A stretch of DNA of 64,000 nt from a virus. Lineage: Duplodnaviria > Heunggongvirae > Uroviricota > Caudoviricetes. Location of the stretch: IMG/VR virus record IMGVR_UViG_3300045988_003495; one strand, written 5' to 3'. This document shows, in pieces, positions 8,644-43,059 of this stretch. The first letter of the stretch is position 1; each line of letters begins with the position of its first letter. Under the pieces are notes generated by a model. The model was not told the origin of the DNA. It saw nothing but the letters and a program-made list of their open reading frames with translations, and searched no databases. The position numbers were made by a program, and so were the translations under genes.

Positions 8644-9195
8644 TCAACTTAGTTTTGCAAACTCTCCGTGGAGTTTTATCGCAGCTTCACAGTAAGCTTT
8701 ATGGGCTTCTTCAGGTGTGTCAAACATACCAAGATGATAGTTTTTACCTTGTAAACGTATCATTGCTCGAAACCTTTTACTTATCTTCTGTACACCTTTT
8801 GGCAACCCAGATGGGGACTCTCTTGACCGATTGCAAGAGTTTTGTGAAGCTGTACAAACCCTTAAATTCAAGTACCTATTGTCCCAACCGTCCCCATTCT
8901 TATGGTCAACCTGTAAGGTTTTATCAGGTAGATATCCATCCATATACAAGATAACTAAACGATTTGCTTGGTAGCCCCTTCCATCAATCAGCAACTGAAC
9001 TGACTTGTGTCCATCAGTATTTGTTCTGTAGTTTCCAGCCCTCTTACCTCCAAATCTAGAGTTAAAGTTTGCATTACCTTCTCTAAACTTCCAAGTAAAG
9101 ACCCCTGTTTCGGGGTCGTAGTCCAATAGCTCCTTAAGACGAATTTCTGTAATCATTTCAACACCATCAATGTACTTCCAACCAGCTCTTACCAA
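8644..9195 (-). CDS. HNH homing endonuclease with AP2-type DNA-binding domain
   Basis: N-terminal YDPETGVFTWK, HNH core QVDHKNGDGWDNRYLNLRVCTASQN, C-terminal AP2-like GMFDTPEEAHKAY; paralogous to 18759..19250 and 32481..32972. Confidence 0.75.
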   Translation of the reverse strand: MVRAGWKYIDGVEMITEIRLKELLDYDPETGVFTWKFREGNANFNSRFGGKRAGNYRTNTDGHKSVQLLIDGRGYQANRLVILYMDGYLPDKTLQVDHKNGDGWDNRYLNLRVCTASQNSCNRSRESPSGLPKGVQKISKRFRAMIRLQGKNYHLGMFDTPEEAHKAYCEAAIKLHGEFAKLS

Positions 9196-17734: not shown

Positions 17735-18781
17735 ATGGAGAAGTACACATTAACAAAACTTCCCGATTCAGTTACACATGTTTTTATTGACTCTGACAGC
17801 ATTGCCTATAAAGGTGCTTGTGTAGTTGAGAAAGCAAAATATAAATACGTCAATAAACTCACAGCAGAAGAATCTGAACCATTTGACAATGCGAAAGATG
17901 CTGCAAGATGGTTAGCAGACCAGAGAATCCTTGTGGAAGAACTTGGCCTGACATTTGATGAAGATGAATGGGAAAGACAGACTTGGAAAGAAGCTAAGAG
18001 TGAAAAAGAAGCTATCATGGCGACTCAACAGGTGCTTCAGGAATGGCTTAAGATTGTTGGTAAAGAAAGAACTTGGGTAGGCTATTTAACAGAGAAAGGT
18101 GTGCATAAACATAAAGACATTAAAGGTCTTGAGCACCAATATCAAGGGAACCGTAAAGATGCTGTCACACCAACACACTTAGTCGCTTGTCGTGAATACC
18201 TTTTATCCAGACCAGAGTTCAAGCTGATTCTTGATGGATTTGAAGCTGACTCTATCGTAATTGCTAAAGCTGAAAAGATGGGTAAAAAGGCTGCCTTAAT
18301 GAGTATTGATAAAGACCTTCGACAAGCTGAAGGTACTTACTGCATTGATATGACCTATGAAAAATCACCTTTAATTTTTATTGCTGATAACAACGTTGGT
18401 GAAATTTGGGATTGCCCAATAAAATCAACACCAAAAGCTAAGAAGACAGTTGGGGTAGGTTTTAAATTTCTTTGTTATCAAGCTGTGGCTGGTGATAATG
18501 CAGATAACTATTTTGGTTTAAAGGGCGTTGGTAAGGTTGCTGTAATGAAAGCCCTTGAAGGTAAAACTACTTACAAAGAGTGTCTTGATGCAATTTATGA
18601 GCTTTATGCTAAGAAAGAGTCATACACTTATGTCTCGTGGGATGGTCAAACAATTACCAGAACACCTTTAGAGTTAATGCAGCAACACTTTTTCTTAGCT
18701 TATCAGGAAAGAAATAAGAAAGATGATTTTACTTTTGATAAGTATGGGTGGACACCAAATGTTAACTCAACAAACTCTTAA
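17735..18781 (+). CDS. 5'-3' exonuclease (T7 gp6-like)
   Basis: N-terminal VTHVFIDSDSIAYKGA resembles the acidic active-site start of T7 gene 6-type exonucleases; 348 aa. Confidence 0.65.
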   Translation: MEKYTLTKLPDSVTHVFIDSDSIAYKGACVVEKAKYKYVNKLTAEESEPFDNAKDAARWLADQRILVEELGLTFDEDEWERQTWKEAKSEKEAIMATQQVLQEWLKIVGKERTWVGYLTEKGVHKHKDIKGLEHQYQGNRKDAVTPTHLVACREYLLSRPEFKLILDGFEADSIVIAKAEKMGKKAALMSIDKDLRQAEGTYCIDMTYEKSPLIFIADNNVGEIWDCPIKSTPKAKKTVGVGFKFLCYQAVAGDNADNYFGLKGVGKVAVMKALEGKTTYKECLDAIYELYAKKESYTYVSWDGQTITRTPLELMQQHFFLAYQERNKKDDFTFDKYGWTPNVNSTNS

Positions 18782-19250
18782 AGAGTACCTACATTATGAC
18801 CCCGAAACAGGGGTCTTTACTTGGATTAAGAAATCTGCTAGACACACAAAAATTGGCTCTGTTGCAGGTACAAACTTAAGAGGGTACACCAGAATTTATT
18901 TGTTTGGTAAGGGCTATTATGCACATACCCTAGCCGTTCTGTATATGGATGGATACCTACCTGAGTGTGTTGACCATAAAAATCATGTAACACTAGACAA
19001 TCGCTGGGTAAATCTTAGGGCATGTACGTTATCAGAGAACCAATGTAATAGGTTGCTCAATAAGAACAATAAATCAGGTGTTAAAGGTGTGTACTACAAA
19101 AAACAGTATGGTAAGTGGTCTACACAGATAACTTTTAAGAAGAGGGTCTACTTCTTCGGCAACTATGACACTATTGATGAAGCAGCAGAGGTTGTAAATA
19201 GGGAACGTCAACGTTTACACAAAGAGTTTGCTAATAAAGGTGATGAATGA
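18759..19250 (+). CDS. HNH homing endonuclease with AP2-type domain
   Basis: YDPETGVFTWIKK, HNH core VDHKNHVTLDNRWVNLRACTLSEN, AP2-like FGNYDTIDEAAEV; start uncertain (ORF track begins 18723). Confidence 0.7.
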   Translation: MLTQQTLKEYLHYDPETGVFTWIKKSARHTKIGSVAGTNLRGYTRIYLFGKGYYAHTLAVLYMDGYLPECVDHKNHVTLDNRWVNLRACTLSENQCNRLLNKNNKSGVKGVYYKKQYGKWSTQITFKKRVYFFGNYDTIDEAAEVVNRERQRLHKEFANKGDE

Positions 19251-19747
19251 GAAAAATAAAAGGTTTTGGCAATTGCCCTGAATATGGACATTGGGTTTCA
19301 CTATGTGGTGAAGTTGACCCAGCAAAGCACTTTGGTTTTGTCTACCTAGTGTACTGCAAAAAGACTGGACAGTACTATTTGGGTAAGAAACAGCTTAACA
19401 GTGTGACAAAAAGAAAAGTTGCTGGGAAGACTCGGAAGAAGGTAGTCACTAAGGAGAGTGATTGGATGACTTACGAGACTTCTTCTGAGTATATTAAAAA
19501 AGATATTGAGAGCTTTGGAAAAGAATTTTTTGACTTTTACATCATTCAGACCTACTACACAAAAGGTGGCCTAGTCTATGGTGAAGCAAACCTTCAACAT
19601 AAATTCGATGTAATGACAAAAAGGATTGACTCGAAGCTCAGACTCTTCTACAATGCCAATATTGCAGCAATTAAGTTTATTACTAAAGAAACTTATGAAG
19701 ATGCTGAAAAAAGAATCCATAAGGTAATGAAAGCAAATTGTGCTTGA
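19247..19747 (+). CDS. GIY-YIG family nuclease
   Basis: FGFVYLVYCKKTGQYYLGKK matches the GIY...YIG spacing. Confidence 0.5.
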   Translation: MRKIKGFGNCPEYGHWVSLCGEVDPAKHFGFVYLVYCKKTGQYYLGKKQLNSVTKRKVAGKTRKKVVTKESDWMTYETSSEYIKKDIESFGKEFFDFYIIQTYYTKGGLVYGEANLQHKFDVMTKRIDSKLRLFYNANIAAIKFITKETYEDAEKRIHKVMKANCA

Positions 19748-25536: not shown

Positions 25537-27681
25537 ATGAACAAAGTACAGATTATTAAAAAGAATGGCTCACTTGAAGAACCTGATATCAAAAAAGTTT
25601 TAGCAGCAGTCACAAAGTCAGCTAACAGAGTTGGTTATAAAGAGCTTCCACCAGATGTTACTCAAGCTCTTGAGTCAGCATTTATGAGGATTCTGGTAAA
25701 GTCCACTAAGCAGAATAATTTGCTAATTTCGGTAAATGATATTCACAGTATTGTTGAGGGTGCTTTGGCAGAAGTCAATCACGAGATTTATGAGTCTTAC
25801 TCAACATACAGAAATTACCGTAAAGAGGTTGCTCAAAATTGGGATGAACTCTACCAGAAGACTAAGGATACCCTCTTCTTAGGTGACCGTGAAAATGCTA
25901 ACTTTGACAGCAGTTTAATTTCTACGAAAGGTTCAATTATCCGTGGTTACCTGACTAAAGAAATCTTTAAACAGTATCATCTAACACCAGAGGAACTTGA
26001 AGCCATTGAGAAAGGCTTTATCTATATCCACGATTTGAGAGACCTGATTTTTGGTGGTATTAACTGTTGCCTGTTTGACATTGGTAAAGTACTAAAAGGT
26101 GGCTTTGAAATGTCCGGCATTGAGTACTGTGAACCTAAATCTGTACTGTCAGCGTTGCAGGTTATTGGTGACGTAGTACTTTCAGCAACTGCACAGCAAT
26201 TTGGTGGTTTTACTTTAGCAGAGATTGATAAGGTACTTGTACCGTATGCTAAGAAGTCTCTACGCTATCATGCTGAGAAAGCATCATCTTATGGTATTCC
26301 TAAAGAGCATTACCACAATTATGTAATGGAGCAGTTACAAATTGAACTGACTCAAGGTTTTCAGTCACTTGAGATGAAACTAAATACCGTACCTTGTAGC
26401 CGTGGTGATTTTGCATTCACAACTTTAACATTTGGTTTACTTGACTCAGATATGTCTAATGAGGATAATCGACTACAATACATGATTGCAAGTACTCTCC
26501 TAGATGTTCGTATGAATGGACAAGGTAAGAGCAAAAAACCTGTTGTATTCCCTAAACTGGTTTATATTTATGACCAGAAGAGACATGATGAAAATATCTG
26601 TCAAGGTCACCTGTACAGTAAAGCCATCGAGTGTTGCTCTAAAGCAATGTACCCAGATTTCTTAAGTGTGTCTGGTCATGGTGCTGTAGCAGAGGCTTTT
26701 GAGCGTTCTGGTAAGGTAATTTCACCGATGGGTTGCAGAGCCTTCTTATCTCCATATTTTAATGAGGATGGGAAAGAGTTTTACGTTGGTCGTGCTAACA
26801 TTGGTGCTGTATCTTTGAACTTACCTATGATTTATCAGTACGCCAAAGAGAATGGTTTAGATTTCTGGAAAGAGCTTGATAAGTACCTAGAGATGATTCG
26901 CAGCTTCCACAAGAAACGCTACGAAATGATTGCTAATATGCCAGCAAGTTCTAACCCTCTCGCATTCACACAGGGTGGTCTGTACAAAGGGAATAAGAAA
27001 CCTACTGATAAGGTTGGCTGGGATATCGTGAAGTCCTTCACAGCTTCTTTTGGGGTTACTGCGCTTGATGAATTATCTGTTCTTGCTGAAGGTAAACGAC
27101 TTCATGAAGTTGGAAGTTGTAGTTTTGCATACGATGTTCTGGAATACATCAACATGAAAACTGAAGAGTTTAAAAATGAAGATGGTTTCTTATATGCAGT
27201 CTATGGCACTCCAGCAGAATCACTTTGTGGAACTCAGCTAAAACAGTTCAGAGATATGTTTGGAGTTATCAAAGGTGTTTCTGATAAGGAATACTTTACA
27301 AACAGCTTCCATATGAATGTTGCAGCAGACATCACACCATTTGAGAAGCAGGACTTAGAAGAACCTTTCTTCCATATCTGTAGAGGTGGCAGAATCCAGT
27401 ATGTAAGGGTAGCTAATCCAGAAAACTTACCAGCACTTAAAAGCTGTATTACCAGAGGGATGTTGAAGGGTTTTTATCAGGGGCTTAACTTTGACTTAGC
27501 AATCTGTGAACATTGTGGTAACAGACCAAAGGCTGATGTTGAAGAATGTGAGGTTTGCCATTCACACGACATCTCTGTGATTAACAGGGTGTGCGGGTAC
27601 TTGTCATTCACAAAAATTAAAGGTCAGTCTCGAATGAATGACGCTAAGATGGCAGAAATCAAGGATAGGGTTTCTATGTAG
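25537..27681 (+). CDS. nrdD: anaerobic ribonucleoside-triphosphate reductase
   Basis: 714 aa; C-terminal zinc ribbon CEHCGN...CEVCHSHD and glycyl-radical motif RVCGYLS. Confidence 0.9.
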   Translation: MNKVQIIKKNGSLEEPDIKKVLAAVTKSANRVGYKELPPDVTQALESAFMRILVKSTKQNNLLISVNDIHSIVEGALAEVNHEIYESYSTYRNYRKEVAQNWDELYQKTKDTLFLGDRENANFDSSLISTKGSIIRGYLTKEIFKQYHLTPEELEAIEKGFIYIHDLRDLIFGGINCCLFDIGKVLKGGFEMSGIEYCEPKSVLSALQVIGDVVLSATAQQFGGFTLAEIDKVLVPYAKKSLRYHAEKASSYGIPKEHYHNYVMEQLQIELTQGFQSLEMKLNTVPCSRGDFAFTTLTFGLLDSDMSNEDNRLQYMIASTLLDVRMNGQGKSKKPVVFPKLVYIYDQKRHDENICQGHLYSKAIECCSKAMYPDFLSVSGHGAVAEAFERSGKVISPMGCRAFLSPYFNEDGKEFYVGRANIGAVSLNLPMIYQYAKENGLDFWKELDKYLEMIRSFHKKRYEMIANMPASSNPLAFTQGGLYKGNKKPTDKVGWDIVKSFTASFGVTALDELSVLAEGKRLHEVGSCSFAYDVLEYINMKTEEFKNEDGFLYAVYGTPAESLCGTQLKQFRDMFGVIKGVSDKEYFTNSFHMNVAADITPFEKQDLEEPFFHICRGGRIQYVRVANPENLPALKSCITRGMLKGFYQGLNFDLAICEHCGNRPKADVEECEVCHSHDISVINRVCGYLSFTKIKGQSRMNDAKMAEIKDRVSM

Positions 27682-27688
27682 CATACAA

Positions 27689-28246
27689 ATGAATTACGAA
27701 CTGATATATAATGCAATTATTAAGAAGGCACATTCTGAAAGGGGTGTGCCTCTTACATACTACAAATGTCAAGGTAAGGGTTATGAAAGACACCATATCA
27801 TACCAGTATGTCTAGGTGGCGATAAAATTAGTGGAGATAATATTGCTTTACTTACACCTAGAGAGCATTATATAGCTCATAAATTACTGGTTAAGATGTA
27901 TCCAAACAATCATAAGTTATGGTTTGCATGGAACAGGTTAGCTCATGATGGCCTAGATAGGAAAATATCATCCAGAGACTATGAAAAGGTAAGGGCTTTG
28001 AACTCGAAAGCTCTATCTATTGTGAATAAAGGTAGGGTTTTCACTGAAGAACATCGAAGACGATTAGGAGAATCTCAAATAGGCAATACAAAATCAAAAG
28101 GTTGTAAAAGGTCTATAGAAACAAGGAAGAAGATGTCAGAAGCCGGAAAAAAGCCAAAGAAAAAGAAAACTTGCCCTCATTGTGGTATGACTGGTGGTGC
28201 TGGTAACATGACTCGATACCATTTTGACAATTGTAAGGAAAAATAA
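27689..28246 (+). CDS. HNH endonuclease
   Basis: HHIIPVCLGGDKISGDNIALLTPREHYIAHKL HNH core; C-terminal CPHCG...C zinc finger; lies between nrdD and nrdG. Confidence 0.65.
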   Translation: MNYELIYNAIIKKAHSERGVPLTYYKCQGKGYERHHIIPVCLGGDKISGDNIALLTPREHYIAHKLLVKMYPNNHKLWFAWNRLAHDGLDRKISSRDYEKVRALNSKALSIVNKGRVFTEEHRRRLGESQIGNTKSKGCKRSIETRKKMSEAGKKPKKKKTCPHCGMTGGAGNMTRYHFDNCKEK

Positions 28247-30737: not shown

Positions 30738-30788
30738 GAGTCTATGATTAGGGAACTGTAAAGGTTCCCTTTTTATTTTGGAGATAAA

Positions 30789-31304
30789 ATGTATCTGTCA
30801 AACCTGAAACGTTCGGCTGCAATGTCAGTGTTAAGACTCAGCTTTGAGGAACGTCAAGAGTTCATTGACTCCCACCAATACGACCCCTCAAACTCCAATC
30901 ACATGATTCTCTGGAATCGTGAGAGTACTCGTGAAAGAGTATTATTCCGATATTACCCATACTACACCATAGACAACCTGTATGAATGTTTTGTTGTGAA
31001 GAACACCATTACAGTACTTAATAAACTTTGCAGATACACAGGTAGTCAATCCTTCACATTAGGTCACCACAAGCCTGTTACAAAAGGTGGTGAACATCAC
31101 TGCGCAAACTGGTTTATCCAAACTAAAGCTGATAACCAGAAGCAAGAAGATAGCCTTCTAAGCACTCCTAAGATGACCTATGAAGAGCAAGAGAGATATA
31201 TCAAAAATAATATGCCAGATGTGCTTGACAACAACTATACAGATTTGGCAATATCTCTCCTGTTGAAGTTTGAGACAGTTTATAGGGCAACTTACAATGG
31301 CTAA
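30789..31304 (+). CDS. hypothetical protein
   Basis: 171-aa ORF. Confidence 0.45.
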   Translation: MYLSNLKRSAAMSVLRLSFEERQEFIDSHQYDPSNSNHMILWNRESTRERVLFRYYPYYTIDNLYECFVVKNTITVLNKLCRYTGSQSFTLGHHKPVTKGGEHHCANWFIQTKADNQKQEDSLLSTPKMTYEEQERYIKNNMPDVLDNNYTDLAISLLLKFETVYRATYNG

Positions 31305-31575
31305 AGAGAAGTGGGAGATTCTACCATTAGTGAGTGAAGGTGGTAACGGCTGTGAGATGTACATGATACGTGGTCATGTCCCAGAACCAATTGCACTTGA
31401 GATGGTAAACAATTTTACAGATGGCTCTTACAAAGATTTAGGAGAGCCAACTATAAAGCATCAATGGGTCAAACCTGTACCAGACAGCACAGGTAACTGT
31501 AGTGTACTTTATCACGTTGTAGACCCTGCAAAATGCAAATCTGCAATGGCAGTAACAAACATAACCTTTGATTGA
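31297..31575 (+). CDS. hypothetical protein
   Basis: ATG at 31297 within ORF 31270..31575. Confidence 0.4.
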   Translation: MAKEKWEILPLVSEGGNGCEMYMIRGHVPEPIALEMVNNFTDGSYKDLGEPTIKHQWVKPVPDSTGNCSVLYHVVDPAKCKSAMAVTNITFD

Positions 31576-31590
31576 TAGAGAGAGAAAACT

Positions 31591-32472
31591 ATGAAAACAT
31601 CTATCCGTGTTACAGTTCATTCACCAACTAAAGGGACTCATGAAGAAGAGTTTAACATCATCCAATTTCCTTCTGGTGAGATTGGTGGACACTTTTCGCC
31701 AGAGTTTGTTGATTTCACTGCTTATGCAGCATCATCCATCAACAATGTGATTATGATTGTAAAAGGTTATGACAAGGACACATTGTTTGCTGTGGCACTT
31801 GCTAAAGAAGCAATTGATGATTTAATTCCTCATGATTATGCTTTAAAGACTGTCATCTTTTACTACTTACCAAATGCACGATATGACCGTCACATGTTTA
31901 AAGGCGACGCAGCAGCTTTAAAGGTTTTTGCTAAACAGGTAAATGCAATGGGATTTGGTGCAGTCTGTGCAGTTGACCCTCACAGTTACGTTCCAGATAA
32001 CCTGTTTAACTGCTTCCAGAGTATTCCTCAAAAGGAGATTGCAGTCCACTATGCAAATGACCCACTGGTTGATTACTTAGTAGCCCCAGATGCAGGTGCT
32101 GCTAAGAAGGTTGCAGAGACCGCTAAAGAGGCGGATAAACCATATATCACAATGTCTAAGGTGCGTAACCTTAAGACTGGTGAAATTACTGGTATGCGAA
32201 TCCTTGATGATGTTGATTTGACAGATAAAACCGTCATGATTCTGGATGATATCTGTGATGGTGGTCGAACCTTCATAGAAGCAGCTAGACATCTTCGTGA
32301 AGCAGGTGCAAAACGTGTGGAACTCTATGTAACACATGGTATCTTCTCTAAAGATGTTGAAAACCTTCTTGACAATGGCATTGACCACATCTACACTACA
32401 AACTCTTTAGGGGAAGCTAAAGACCGTGGCTTAACACATTATGGTCAAGTTACTGTAGCAAATTTGGATTAG
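31591..32472 (+). CDS. ribose-phosphate pyrophosphokinase-like enzyme (Prs-like; candidate ADPR-PP synthetase of NARP1)
   Basis: 293 aa; PRPP-binding-type motif VMILDDICDGGRTFIEAARHLREAGA; partnered with NAMPT-like gene. Confidence 0.65.
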   Translation: MKTSIRVTVHSPTKGTHEEEFNIIQFPSGEIGGHFSPEFVDFTAYAASSINNVIMIVKGYDKDTLFAVALAKEAIDDLIPHDYALKTVIFYYLPNARYDRHMFKGDAAALKVFAKQVNAMGFGAVCAVDPHSYVPDNLFNCFQSIPQKEIAVHYANDPLVDYLVAPDAGAAKKVAETAKEADKPYITMSKVRNLKTGEITGMRILDDVDLTDKTVMILDDICDGGRTFIEAARHLREAGAKRVELYVTHGIFSKDVENLLDNGIDHIYTTNSLGEAKDRGLTHYGQVTVANLD

Positions 32473-32480
32473 GTATTAAA

Positions 32481-32972
32481 ATGGATAAGGGTTACTTCGA
32501 AAAATACCTAATATACGAACCGGAGACAGGTTTACTAATTTGGAAAGTAACCCTTTGCAATACCGCTATTGCTGGTAATGTTGCTGGCACAAGGTCTAAG
32601 AAGGGTTATATCCAAGTCCAGATAAATAAGAAGAGGTACTATGCACATAATATTGCATGGATTATGTCTGGAGGTGAGATACCAAGTGGATATGAGATAG
32701 ACCACATAGACCTTGATAAATCTAATAATAAGTTGGAGAATTTAAGACTTAGCACAAAGTCACAAAATCAGAGGAATAGGGGTATATACAAGAATAATAA
32801 AACTGGTGTGAAGGGTGTAAGTTTTTGTAAACAAACAGGTCTTTACAAAGCAAGAGTCATGCTTTACCATAAAGAATACTTTTGTGGAAGATTTAAAACG
32901 GTAGAAGAAGCAAAAGAAGCTGTAATTAAAAAGCGAATAGAACTTCATGGTGAGTTTGCAAGACATAACTAA
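32481..32972 (+). CDS. HNH homing endonuclease with AP2-type domain
   Basis: YEPETGLLIWK, HNH core IDHIDLDKSNNKLENLRLSTKSQN, AP2-like GRFKTVEEAKEAV; inserted between the two NAD-salvage genes. Confidence 0.7.
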   Translation: MDKGYFEKYLIYEPETGLLIWKVTLCNTAIAGNVAGTRSKKGYIQVQINKKRYYAHNIAWIMSGGEIPSGYEIDHIDLDKSNNKLENLRLSTKSQNQRNRGIYKNNKTGVKGVSFCKQTGLYKARVMLYHKEYFCGRFKTVEEAKEAVIKKRIELHGEFARHN

Positions 32973-32990
32973 GAGAGAGAGAGATAAAAT

Positions 32991-34772
32991 ATGAGTAAGT
33001 CACTTTACGCAGTACCAGCAGGTCTTAATGCAGATGCTTACAAGGCATCACATATATATCAGTATCCAGATGCTACGCAATATCTTATGTTGAACCTGAC
33101 ACCACGTAGCGACAAATGGTTTAACAGTCCATTAGCAATTGATGGTGTAGTCGCTTTTGGTATTCAACGTTTCGTTAAAGATTACTTGATAGACCACTGG
33201 AACGCCACTTTCTTTGAACGTGATAAAAAAGAAGCCATTGATGAAATCTTAGAAGTCATGAATGGTGTTCTGGGTAAAGATGCTATCGGTCGAGAGCATT
33301 GGGAAGCACTTCACGACTTAGGTTATCTACCAGTTGAAGTATACGCTGTAGAAGAAGGCACAGTTGTCCCTATGCGTGTCCCAATGATTGTCTTCCAGAA
33401 CACTGTTTCAGGTTTCCATTGGGTAGCAGGTTATCTGGAAGATGCTTTCTCTGCTGAGATTTGGAAGGCTTGCACTATTGCAACTATTGCATTGCATTAC
33501 AAACGCATCTGTAAGAAGTGGGCTGACCTTACTTGTGACAACGACTTGCATCTGCCCTATCAGTGCCATGACTTTGCTATGCGTGGTATGTCAGGCTTTA
33601 CTGATGACGCATTTAATGCTGTAGGTCACTTAACCAGCTTTAAAGGAACTGACAGCTTCCCTGCTGTATACACGGCTAAACGCATCTATGGGCAGTCTTA
33701 CCCAATCTCTGATATTGGTAGTTCTGTACCAGCCACTGAACACTCTGTAATGTGTGCAAACATTGCTTGGGAAGGTGGTAATGAATTGATTGAAGATGAA
33801 AGACGCTTTAAAGGTGAGTTACAAACCTTCCGTCGTTTTTTAACAGAAACTTACCCAACTGGTATTGCAAGTATTGTTTCAGATACTTATAACTTCTGGA
33901 GAACTGTGTCAGAAATCTTACCAGCACTCCGTAAAGAAATTATGGAACGTGATGGCAAACTGGTAATTCGCCCTGACTCTGGAGACCCTGTACATATTGT
34001 CACAGGTTATAAAGCAATCCACTTAGAATGTGCTAAGAAGGCTTATTATGAGCACCTTAGTAAGCTGGAAGCCAGCGACACAATGTTGAATGCTGTTCTG
34101 AATATGAAGCTTGAAAACATCAGCTATGGTATTGCTGGATGGCTACTGTCAGAAGGCTACGAAATGGTTGTTGACAGAGAAGACTTTGAAGTTGCTGATA
34201 CAGTGATGTTGAAGAACGCTTATATGGTTGGTTCTGCAAACGTTGTAACACGCCCTGTAGCAGAGATTGATGGGGCTATTAAGACCCTGTATAACATCTT
34301 CGGAGGGACTATCAACTCCAAAGGCTTTAAGGTACTGGATGAGCATATCGGGCTTATCTATGGCGACTCTATCACGCTGGAACGTGCAAACGAAATCCTG
34401 AAGCGTCTGTATGAAATGGGTTTTGCAAGCTCTAACGTAGTGTTTGGTGTAGGCTCTTACACTTACCAGTACATGACTCGTGACACCTTTGCATTTGCTG
34501 TCAAAGCAACTCTTGCAAGCATTGGTGGTAAAGAGATTATGCTTGCAAAAGACCCTAAAACAGATAGTGGTGTTAAGAAATCTGCCTTTGGTGGTGTAGC
34601 ACCTATGTGGGATGGTGATAAGCTGAAAGCTGTAGATGGCTATGGATTCCAGAGCTTTGCAGATGCACTTGAACATCCAGCTTGTGCTCTACGCTTAGTC
34701 TTTAGTGATTCTGAGCAGTATGGTTACACATCTCTTGGTGATATTCGAAATAATATTGACAAGCAGCTTTAA
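32991..34772 (+). CDS. nicotinamide phosphoribosyltransferase-like enzyme (NAMPT-like; candidate nicotinamide ADPR transferase of NARP1)
   Basis: 593 aa; overall NAMPT/NadV-like size and motifs; adjacent to Prs-like gene. Confidence 0.7.
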   Translation: MSKSLYAVPAGLNADAYKASHIYQYPDATQYLMLNLTPRSDKWFNSPLAIDGVVAFGIQRFVKDYLIDHWNATFFERDKKEAIDEILEVMNGVLGKDAIGREHWEALHDLGYLPVEVYAVEEGTVVPMRVPMIVFQNTVSGFHWVAGYLEDAFSAEIWKACTIATIALHYKRICKKWADLTCDNDLHLPYQCHDFAMRGMSGFTDDAFNAVGHLTSFKGTDSFPAVYTAKRIYGQSYPISDIGSSVPATEHSVMCANIAWEGGNELIEDERRFKGELQTFRRFLTETYPTGIASIVSDTYNFWRTVSEILPALRKEIMERDGKLVIRPDSGDPVHIVTGYKAIHLECAKKAYYEHLSKLEASDTMLNAVLNMKLENISYGIAGWLLSEGYEMVVDREDFEVADTVMLKNAYMVGSANVVTRPVAEIDGAIKTLYNIFGGTINSKGFKVLDEHIGLIYGDSITLERANEILKRLYEMGFASSNVVFGVGSYTYQYMTRDTFAFAVKATLASIGGKEIMLAKDPKTDSGVKKSAFGGVAPMWDGDKLKAVDGYGFQSFADALEHPACALRLVFSDSEQYGYTSLGDIRNNIDKQL

Positions 34773-34785
34773 AAGTATATGATAA

Positions 34786-34808
34786 GAGGCTCCTACGGGA
34801 GCCTTTTT
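34786..34808 (+). terminator. rho-independent terminator
   Basis: ggctcc-tacg-ggagcc followed by ttttt. Confidence 0.6.
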
Positions 34809-34825
34809 AATTTCTGGAGAAGACT

Positions 34826-42273: not shown

Positions 42274-43059
42274 ATGGGTATTGTAAAAATCATCAAAGGT
42301 GATATCTTTGACGCCTTTGATAAAGGTAAGTTTGACATCATTGGTCATGGTTGTAACTGTATGAATTTAATGGGTGCAGGTATTGCAGCAACTATTTCTA
42401 AGCGTTATCCAAAAGTGTATGATACTGACACAGAAGTTTACCTGTTTGCAGGTGGCATTCGTCACAAACCCTGTGAAAATTTACTAGGTAATTTCTCTGT
42501 AGCACGTTTAAAACAAGGCCGTATAGCTAACCTTTACACCCAACTTCATACTGGTAAAGATGCCCGATACAGTGCTTTAGAGTCATCCTTGAAACAGCTT
42601 AACAGATACTGTGAAGTTAACCAGTTGAAGAAAGTTGGTCTACCTATGATTGGTGCAGGTATCGGTGGACTTGACCCTCAAGCTGTCACAGTTATCATTA
42701 ATCAGGTGATGAAGAGTGTAGATGTTTATCTGTATGTCTATGAAGCAAAAATGTATAATGAGTTACACTCAGGTTGGAAAAACTACTGTGAACCAGAATA
42801 CTTTGCAGGTGTAGTTGTGTTCACAGATAACGCAGTTACCCTCTTCAGACGAAGAAAAGGTAAGATACATCAAAGTAACCCTCCGGTTGAAAAGATGTCT
42901 CTAAGTAACGCTCTAGTTACCCACCTGTCGAAGAGCAATCACAGAATTGCAGTAACATTTGGCAGTGATGCAGATGCTTATATCTATGCAAGAACTGATG
43001 AGGATATTGAGTTAATCCTCTCTTCACCAGAACTTACCTTCTTAGACGCAAAGAACTAA
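42274..43059 (+). CDS. macro-domain protein (ADP-ribose binding/processing)
   Basis: N-terminal GDIFDAF...DIIGHGCNCMNLMGAGIAATI resembles the macro-domain glycine-rich ADP-ribose pocket. Confidence 0.5.
   Translation: MGIVKIIKGDIFDAFDKGKFDIIGHGCNCMNLMGAGIAATISKRYPKVYDTDTEVYLFAGGIRHKPCENLLGNFSVARLKQGRIANLYTQLHTGKDARYSALESSLKQLNRYCEVNQLKKVGLPMIGAGIGGLDPQAVTVIINQVMKSVDVYLYVYEAKMYNELHSGWKNYCEPEYFAGVVVFTDNAVTLFRRRKGKIHQSNPPVEKMSLSNALVTHLSKSNHRIAVTFGSDADAYIYARTDEDIELILSSPELTFLDAKN

Follow-up and report, generated by a model that had tools for sequence, protein, structure and literature searches.

The present analysis identified, in a 64,000-nucleotide stretch of viral DNA (Caudoviricetes; IMG/VR record IMGVR_UViG_3300045988_003495; hereafter, the window), a locus that is very probably a NARP1 counter-defence operon of a Felix O1-like phage, with a selfish homing endonuclease gene lodged between its two genes. 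NARP1 is a phage pathway that rebuilds NAD+ from ADP-ribose (ADPR) and nicotinamide by means of two enzymes, Adps and Namat. The locus consists of three open reading frames (ORFs) of the ORF list, all on the same strand and separated by gaps of 8 nt and then 18 nt:

31591..32472, plus strand: adps, encoding a Prs-like protein of 293 aa, the first NARP1 enzyme
32481..32972, plus strand: free-standing HNH-AP2 homing endonuclease gene, a 492-bp ORF encoding 163 aa
32991..34772, plus strand: namat, encoding a NAMPT-like protein of 593 aa, the second NARP1 enzyme

An earlier note on this DNA had placed a Prs-like, an HNH-AP2 and a NAMPT-like gene at exactly these coordinates, and profile searches agree with all three names. 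The first product matches Pfam Pribosyltran/Pribosyl_synth and PHROG 619 ("ribose-phosphate pyrophosphokinase", E 1e-95), the second Pfam HNH_3 (positions 1-46/46, E 1.6e-19), PHROG 99 ("HNH endonuclease", E 3.5e-69) and, below the gathering score, AP2, and the third Pfam NAPRTase and NAMPT_N as well as PHROG 448 ("nicotinamide phosphoribosyl transferase", E 3e-202). Judged by nucleotide identity, the window is a Felixounavirus (Felix O1-type phage), about 95% identical to many deposited phages. A 4.4-kb query spanning the locus matched 258 phage records, the best of them 92-96% identical over the full length. Felixounaviruses and further Ounavirinae, with Escherichia, Salmonella, Shigella or Citrobacter as hosts, make up nearly the whole set. 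Most of these records carry the same annotated trio: ribose-phosphate pyrophosphokinase, HNH homing endonuclease and nicotinamide phosphoribosyltransferase. Since dozens of annotated Felixounavirus genomes with 92-96% identity have the same three genes, the three ORFs are real genes and not chance ORFs. The neighbours of the locus, NrdG upstream and rIIA/rIIB downstream (Pfam, PHROGs and comparison with phage Bas63), are typical of Felix O1-like phages.

NARP1 was first found by Osterman et al. in Bas63 (JohannRWettstein, MZ501086), which is also a Felixounavirus, and deletion of Bas63 genes 79-80 abolished both the escape from SIR2-HerA and the restoration of NAD+ (bioRxiv 10.1101/2024.02.11.579819). 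In vitro, Adps of SPbetaL1 makes ADPR-pyrophosphate (ADPR-PP) using ADPR plus ATP, and Namat of SPbetaL1 makes NAD+ from ADPR-PP and nicotinamide (10.1101/2024.02.11.579819). By orthology with the Bas63 and SPbetaL1 enzymes, Adps of the window is predicted to turn ADPR plus ATP into ADPR-PP and AMP, and Namat would then combine ADPR-PP with nicotinamide to give NAD+. Together, they would refill an NAD+ pool depleted by SIR2-, TIR- or DSR-type defences. The earlier note had attributed the pair to a NARP1-type pathway and not to a canonical one. This attribution is supported by the orthology with the Bas63 operon: the Namat proteins are 97% identical (578/593) and the Adps proteins 78% identical (228/293), over their full and equal lengths. 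Furthermore, adps and namat are on the same strand at a distance of 518 bp, well within the 10 genes used to define NARP1 adjacency.

The locus shares with Bas63 NARP1 (bas63_0079/0080) the genus, the gene order, the neighbouring genes and the protein lengths. It differs by its HNH gene, whose place is taken in Bas63 by a hairpin-bearing spacer of 45 bp, by another allele of the Adps N-terminus and by the lack of the extra 345-nt ORF (bas63_0081) that follows namat in Bas63. Felix O1 (AF320576, genes 140-141-142) has the same adps-HNH-namat order, and its HNH region is 91.7% identical to that of the window at the nucleotide level; unlike the window, it combines a Bas63-type Adps N-terminus with the HNH gene. 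In the supplementary tables of the discovery paper, Adps (AF320576_00140) and Namat (AF320576_00142, "Adps-associated") of Felix O1 are listed as a NARP1 pair with one gene between them, VSe102 is also included, and Bas63 Namat is classed as "Adps-associated" (10.1101/2024.02.11.579819).

Adps of the window is 94.5% identical to VSe102 Adps, 81% to Felix O1 Adps, about 30% to SPbetaL1 Adps and 23% to Prs of Escherichia coli; its placement in the Adps clade is based on near-identity to sequences belonging to that clade in the published tree. By alignment, K190 corresponds to K162, the catalytic beta-hairpin lysine of SPbetaL1 Adps. The acceptor-site residues R97, H131, D167, D218, D219 and D222 are kept in the motifs ARYDR, DPHS, APDAG and LDDICD, but are common to Prs too and have no power to separate Adps from Prs. 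The PP-loop reads DDICDGGRT in the window versus DDMIDTGGT in E. coli Prs. That of a crystallised Adps is D212-D213-I214-C215-D216 (PMC13586617), and this structurally characterised enzyme shares the DDICDGG loop with the window. The alignment also shows that Adps of the window stops about 20 residues short of the E. coli Prs C-terminus and is devoid of the alpha11-alpha12 module of Prs, a loss considered as a signature of the Adps family (PMC13586617). With the three best-scoring specific Prs models of NCBIfam, Adps obtains 88-104 bits for cut-offs of 296-297. The remaining Prs equivalog or subfamily models give lower scores still, and the sole cut-off passed is that of the broad subfamily model TIGR01251.

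Namat of the window is much closer to SPbetaL1 Namat than to any Nampt among the solved structures retrieved by phmmer: 9W5W of SPbetaL1 (E 1e-128, 434 bits), Nampt of Xanthomonas (1e-52, 179 bits) and human Nampt (1e-41, 146 bits). The catalytic H251 and R327 (equivalent to R306) are kept. The clamp helix reads GVGSYTYQYMTRD in the window, GIGSFTYQYNTRD in Namat and GMGGALLQKVDRD in Nampt; the aromatic Y490 and Y494 fall at the positions of F392 and Y396, where Nampt of Xanthomonas has A and K. In the clamp loop, TPRSDKW, Lys is third and Trp fourth (K42-W43). The clamp loop of Bas63 Namat has been described with such a Lys-Trp pattern, and the adenine "selectivity clamp" is defined as the clamp-helix aromatics plus a stacking residue of the clamp loop (PMC12774641). 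The residues of this clamp are present in Namat of the window, which has both the aromatic helix residues and a stacking loop residue. Taken together, the two proteins share with Adps and Namat of SPbetaL1 (Namat structures 9W5W/9W5X, PMC12774641) the catalytic Lys, His and Arg, the aromatic residues of the clamp helix and the loss of the Prs C-terminal module. They differ by the low identity of Adps, by two insertions in Namat of about 15 and 85 aa, and by the Lys-Trp pair that replaces an Arg in the clamp loop.

A classical salvage pathway, NARP2-like or of the housekeeping type, would have the Prs-like protein make phosphoribosyl pyrophosphate (PRPP), the NAMPT-like protein make nicotinamide mononucleotide (NMN) from it and nicotinamide, and an NMN adenylyltransferase from the host (NadR/NadD) or the phage complete NAD+. 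The database names, which read Prs and NAMPT/NAPRTase, and the score of Namat, above the cut-off of NCBIfam NF006629, fit such a pathway, which we nevertheless regard as highly improbable. Two other points weigh against NARP1: SPbetaL1 Namat also makes NMN from PRPP in vitro (10.1101/2024.02.11.579819), and the N-terminal half of Adps is far from that of Bas63 (60% nucleotide identity over codons 1-90), so that the same handling of substrates is an assumption. However, when given both donors, Namat yields NAD+ only (10.1101/2024.02.11.579819). Moreover, Namat of the window is nearly identical to the "Adps-associated" Namat of Bas63 and retains the aromatic clamp residues peculiar to Namat; the Prs-like protein falls below the cut-offs of all Prs equivalogs and lacks the regulatory C-terminal module of Prs. 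Finally, as claimed by the earlier note, no NMN adenylyltransferase gene was found near the pair. No CTP_transf_like or Nmnat family was detected among the 78 non-nested ORFs (90 aa or longer) of the whole window (best 25 of 31 families, the remaining six each being weaker than E 2e-4), and the (H/T)xGH motif is absent from the window in every frame. In the 95.5%-identical phage pinkbiff, no adenylyltransferase is annotated in the approximately 25 kb outside the window, where the annotations are tail, baseplate, capsid, portal, terminase, holin, thymidylate synthase, tRNAs and many hypothetical proteins. None of the marks of a canonical Prs and NadV/Nampt salvage, including NARP2, was found here: neither a Prs equivalog nor a Nampt lacking the adenine clamp nor an NMN adenylyltransferase. 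NARP2 itself (Nampt and Nmnat of KVP40) is likewise a phage NAD+ restoration built around a NAMPT-like enzyme, but differs by its Nmnat, of which none was found in the window. The earlier note had also indicated that a grouping with canonical Prs and NadV, along with an NMN adenylyltransferase gene elsewhere in the genome, would speak for classical salvage; the proteins group with Adps and Namat instead.

Two deeply diverged alleles of the N-terminal part of Adps (codons 1-180; 31591-32130 in the window) coexist among Felixounaviruses that are otherwise about 95% identical. The window-type allele (about 155 records) and the Bas63/Felix O1-type allele (about 94 records) show 60% nucleotide identity and saturated dS over codons 1-90 versus 90% identity in the C-terminal third, and Namat stays about 97% identical across both types. 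Old recombination or a diversifying pressure on the ADPR-binding domain are candidate causes of this split. We considered whether the presence of the HNH gene tracks the Adps allele and rejected this idea: many loci with a window-type Adps are empty, and Felix O1 has a Bas63-type N-terminus together with the HNH gene; therefore, the Adps allele and the presence of the HNH gene assort independently.

Of the two insertions of Namat, the larger one appears as a gap in the phmmer alignment to 9W5W:

34017..34268, plus strand: insertion of about 85 aa (aa 343-426) in Namat that the crystallised SPbetaL1 Namat lacks

The second and smaller one, of about 15 aa, is located at aa ~257-271 relative to SPbetaL1 Namat (about 490 aa). 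Bas63 Namat (593 aa) also carries the insertion of about 85 aa, which is not discussed in the paper on the Namat structure (PMC12774641). Many homologs from phages of Gram-negative bacteria have insertions of varying length at this site, and homologs from Staphylococcus, Bacillus, ICP1 and Mycobacterium phages are devoid of it. In addition, PHROG 12872 (547 positions, "nicotinamide phosphoribosyl transferase") matches Adps by its N-terminal half and Namat by its C-terminal half. Since this profile spans both enzymes, natural Adps-Namat fusions probably exist in other phages; orf00149 of Shigella phage Ag3, matched by the Adps query, would be an example.

The HNH gene that separates adps from namat is a selfish element that does not belong to the NAD+ pathway. 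It is present in 61 of the approximately 258 related records, in one copy each, with 90-100% identity (518-bp spacer including the ORF). The adps-namat junction was compared in a set of 30 loci (28 IMG/VR loci, Bas63 and the window): seven are occupied by the HNH gene and 23 are empty, with identical boundaries. Junctions were compared by direct reading across 21 loci. Empty sites, found in three lineages, have a spacer of 45-50 bp that extends from the stop codon over AACTTTATA, a hairpin, AUUUU and the ribosome-binding site GAGAGAGAU up to the ATG. The hairpin, GGGGCU-loop-AGCCCC, has a dG of -11.5 to -13.9 kcal/mol and a z of -2.0 to -3.7. No occupied site retains the hairpin; all of them read TAG-GTATTAAA-ATG...HNH...TAA-GAGAGAGAGAGATAAAAT-ATG. 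The earlier note had stated that the HNH-AP2 gene was inserted exactly between both genes, and the empty spacer found at the same position in 23 related loci agrees with this. In the window, the two boundaries are:

32473..32480, plus strand: left insertion junction, GTATTAAA after the TAG of adps, where empty sites have AACTTTATA and the hairpin
32973..32990, plus strand: right insertion boundary, purine-rich spacer GAGAGAGAGAGATAAAAT with the namat ribosome-binding site, common to empty sites

None of the seven copies of the HNH ORF is disrupted, and their dN/dS of 0.07-0.20 indicates purifying selection. Two of the occupied loci, L021 and L022, belong to the Moogle/phiSUSP1 lineage: their Adps and Namat are about 75% identical to those of the window, whereas their HNH proteins are 90-94% identical. 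Likewise, dS between lineages is 0.33-0.44 for the HNH gene versus 0.9-1.3 for the flanking genes. Being intact, having a low dN/dS and being more similar between lineages than its flanks, the HNH gene therefore moves horizontally and encodes a functional protein. The beginning of namat, as revealed by identity and dS against an HNH-less locus (L009) and L021, is linked to it:

32991..33095, plus strand: namat codons 1-35, HNH-linked haplotype (putative co-conversion tract, possibly holding the endonuclease target)

Over these codons, the window and L009 share 74% nucleotide identity with a dS of 2.2, versus about 96-97% identity and a dS of about 0.2 downstream. The window is 92% identical to L021, of another lineage, over this segment and 83% over the rest of the gene. 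A linked segment of about 100 nt at the 5' end of namat is the pattern that would be expected from co-conversion during homing. What these loci display is a presence/absence polymorphism, a transfer between lineages and a linked flank; the target of the endonuclease would be located in the spacer hairpin or in the 5' end of namat. The mechanism is most likely, by analogy, the standard route of free-standing phage homing endonucleases. When two phages co-infect a cell, the HNH enzyme would cut the allele devoid of the HNH gene, within or close to the spacer or namat's 5' end, and repair off the HNH-carrying genome would copy the HNH gene plus about 100 nt of namat.

Several observations weigh against homing by an HNH-AP2 enzyme. 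The AP2 match (1-53/54, E 4.7e-4) reaches 20.8 bits, below the Pfam gathering score of 33.3, and a search of the PDB with the HNH protein gave no solved homolog. Only nt 5 of namat (Ser2 versus Thr2) separates the seven occupied loci from the 23 empty ones, two HNH-less loci (L005 and L008) carry most of the "HNH-type" haplotype at the 5' end of namat, and no co-conversion tract was seen on the adps side. A strict linkage of the namat 5' segment to the HNH gene was rejected by this per-site test; the segment is instead a mosaic tract of variable length.

Alternatively, the HNH-AP2 ORF might be no active mobile element. It would then be an ancestral gene that most relatives lost by deletion, or a DNA-binding or regulatory protein domesticated to serve the operon. 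This is improbable in our view, even if the activity of the enzyme is deduced from sequence, AP2 domains of other phage proteins serve as transcription regulators or anti-CRISPR silencers, and a location inside an operon with purifying selection would also fit a useful function. The element is more alike between lineages than its flanks, and an anciently diverged namat 5' segment travels with it. The empty sites of three lineages share a hairpin that is lost upon insertion: since this hairpin is conserved, the empty state is organised and probably ancestral. Bas63 runs NARP1 without the HNH gene. In addition, HNH_3 is matched over its full length, the same genome has two paralogs at other polymorphic sites, and six HNH endonuclease genes were reported for Felix O1 in 2010, in the paper on its genome (PMC3185647). 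A mobile homing endonuclease gene remains the explanation that we retain for this ORF.

This gene resembles the free-standing HNH-AP2 homing endonuclease genes (HEGs) of phages and the Seg/Mob HEGs of T4 (including SegG, with its co-conversion) by its N-terminal HNH and C-terminal AP2 domains, its intergenic location beside a conserved gene, its presence/absence polymorphism and the sharp divergence boundary alongside. It differs from them in that its cleavage activity and target site are putative and in that its arrival also eliminated a conserved hairpin between two cistrons of a counter-defence operon. Magnani et al. (2004) reportedly described phage HNH-AP2 endonucleases, Felix O1 being among the phages concerned. 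Barth et al. (2023), who cite that work for the HNH-AP2 HEG family, studied such genes ("IPA-HNH" HEGs of ICP1) and HEGs at recombination boundaries (PMC10448857). AP2 domains favour GC-rich DNA (PMC10448857). GC-rich intercistronic hairpins were considered as a general target of HNH-AP2 endonucleases and rejected: the empty site in Bas63 that corresponds to one of the paralogs (18723-19250) consists of overlapping genes and has no hairpin.

It should also be emphasized that NARP1, its Felixounavirus setting and the adps-gene-namat layout are already known or annotated: NARP1 was posted on bioRxiv in 2024 (10.1101/2024.02.11.579819), and structural papers on Namat (PMC12774641) and Adps (PMC13586617) followed in 2026. 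The instance found in the window adds nothing to the NARP1 picture, as it belongs to the genus of the discovery and its HNH layout is present in public annotations and in the tables of the discovery paper. The minor new detail is the anatomy of the insertion site: its precise limits, the disappearance of a conserved hairpin between the two cistrons, the passage from one lineage to another and the namat tract of about 100 nt that is linked to the gene. A counter-defence operon can thus receive selfish elements and stay intact. NARP1 lets phages evade defences that destroy NAD+ (SIR2-HerA, DSR, type I Thoeris and others), which makes it relevant to the choice or engineering of therapeutic phages; phages of the Felix O1 type find wide use against Salmonella and E. 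coli.

Another gene of the window may bear on NAD+ metabolism. Located about 7.5 kb downstream of namat (42274-43059, plus strand), it encodes a 261-aa Macro-domain protein that is the ortholog of bas63_0095 ("putative phosphatase", PHROG 335). Over residues 3-155, it shares 28-35% identity (E 7e-15 and 4e-19) with Adpp, the operon-encoded phosphatases of ADPR-1''-phosphate (ADPR-1''P), and it has an extra C-terminal region of about 100 aa. It also resembles the TARG1/OARD1 and DarG macrodomains, as much as Poa1p. The family spans 2,823 phage records, T4-like phages (Tk.4) among them. The window and NARP1-AP (Adps-Adpp-Namat, Vibrio phage Gary) share the restoration of NAD+ and an Adpp homolog; unlike in NARP1-AP, the Macro gene of the window is outside the operon, and no Macro gene was found inside the adps-HNH-namat operon itself. 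Felix O1-like phages may run a dispersed NARP1-AP, in which the Macro protein would turn the ADPR-1''P made by RES-type defences into ADPR for Adps; judging from homology, this is possible but rather doubtful. If true, these phages would be resistant to aRES though not counted as NARP1-AP carriers. The view of the Macro gene as a dedicated NARP1 accessory is weakened by the size of the family and by the likeness to TARG1 and DarG, and we now treat it as a weak lead.

The window contains other homing-endonuclease-like genes. The two HNH-AP2 paralogs, at 18723-19250 (plus strand) and 8644-9195 (minus strand), have the same architecture as the adps/namat copy, to which they are 39% and 33% identical, respectively. 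The former lies between an exonuclease gene and a homolog of bas63_0057, and its site is empty in Bas63, where those two genes overlap. The latter is just downstream of the DNA polymerase gene, at a site that is also occupied in Bas63 (bas63_0046). A third ORF (27638-28246, plus strand; NUMOD3 motif; PHROG 655 "homing endonuclease", E 5e-58) directly follows nrdD. In the window, nrdD (25537-27681) is apparently uninterrupted, whereas Bas63 nrdD is annotated as two joined pieces with a homing endonuclease inside; therefore, the element content of the nrd region differs between the window and Bas63. A Pfam SegE_GIY-YIG match (E 8.9e-27) was also obtained for one ORF within 179-30737, its location being uncertain. 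This ORF is probably the one at 19247-19747 (plus strand; bas63_0057 homolog, motif FGFVYLV), which abuts the HNH-AP2 gene at 18723-19250.

Concerning transcription, a consensus scan detected three signals around the locus, whose functions are putative:

30750..30770, plus strand: terminator-like hairpin with T-run, likely upstream boundary of the unit
34756-34783: promoter-like site ahead of the following hairpin
34784..34807, plus strand: strong terminator-like hairpin with a 10-bp stem and T-run, likely end of the unit

Both terminator-like signals are also present in the HNH-less relative L009. The putative unit that they delimit comprises two small conserved ORFs (30789-31304 and 31270-31575), adps, the HNH gene and namat. 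By deleting the intercistronic hairpin, the HNH insertion could change the Adps:Namat expression ratio in carriers, which amount to a quarter of Felixounaviruses. The ORF at 30789-31304 (plus strand), two genes upstream of adps, encodes a conserved protein of 171 aa (PHROG 3500, unknown function; bas63_0077 in Bas63) with a weak HNH-like signature, GHHKPVTKGGEHHCANW (PHROG 2214 "HNH endonuclease", E 3e-4). At the other border, Bas63 and several relatives carry, directly 3' of namat, an ORF of the bas63_0081 type (345 nt, 114 aa, PHROG 20372, unknown function; L001:15509-15853). In the window, the corresponding region (34773-34825) is devoid of this ORF and contains only the promoter-like site and the terminator-like hairpin; this ORF is thus a second presence/absence polymorphism at the border of the operon.

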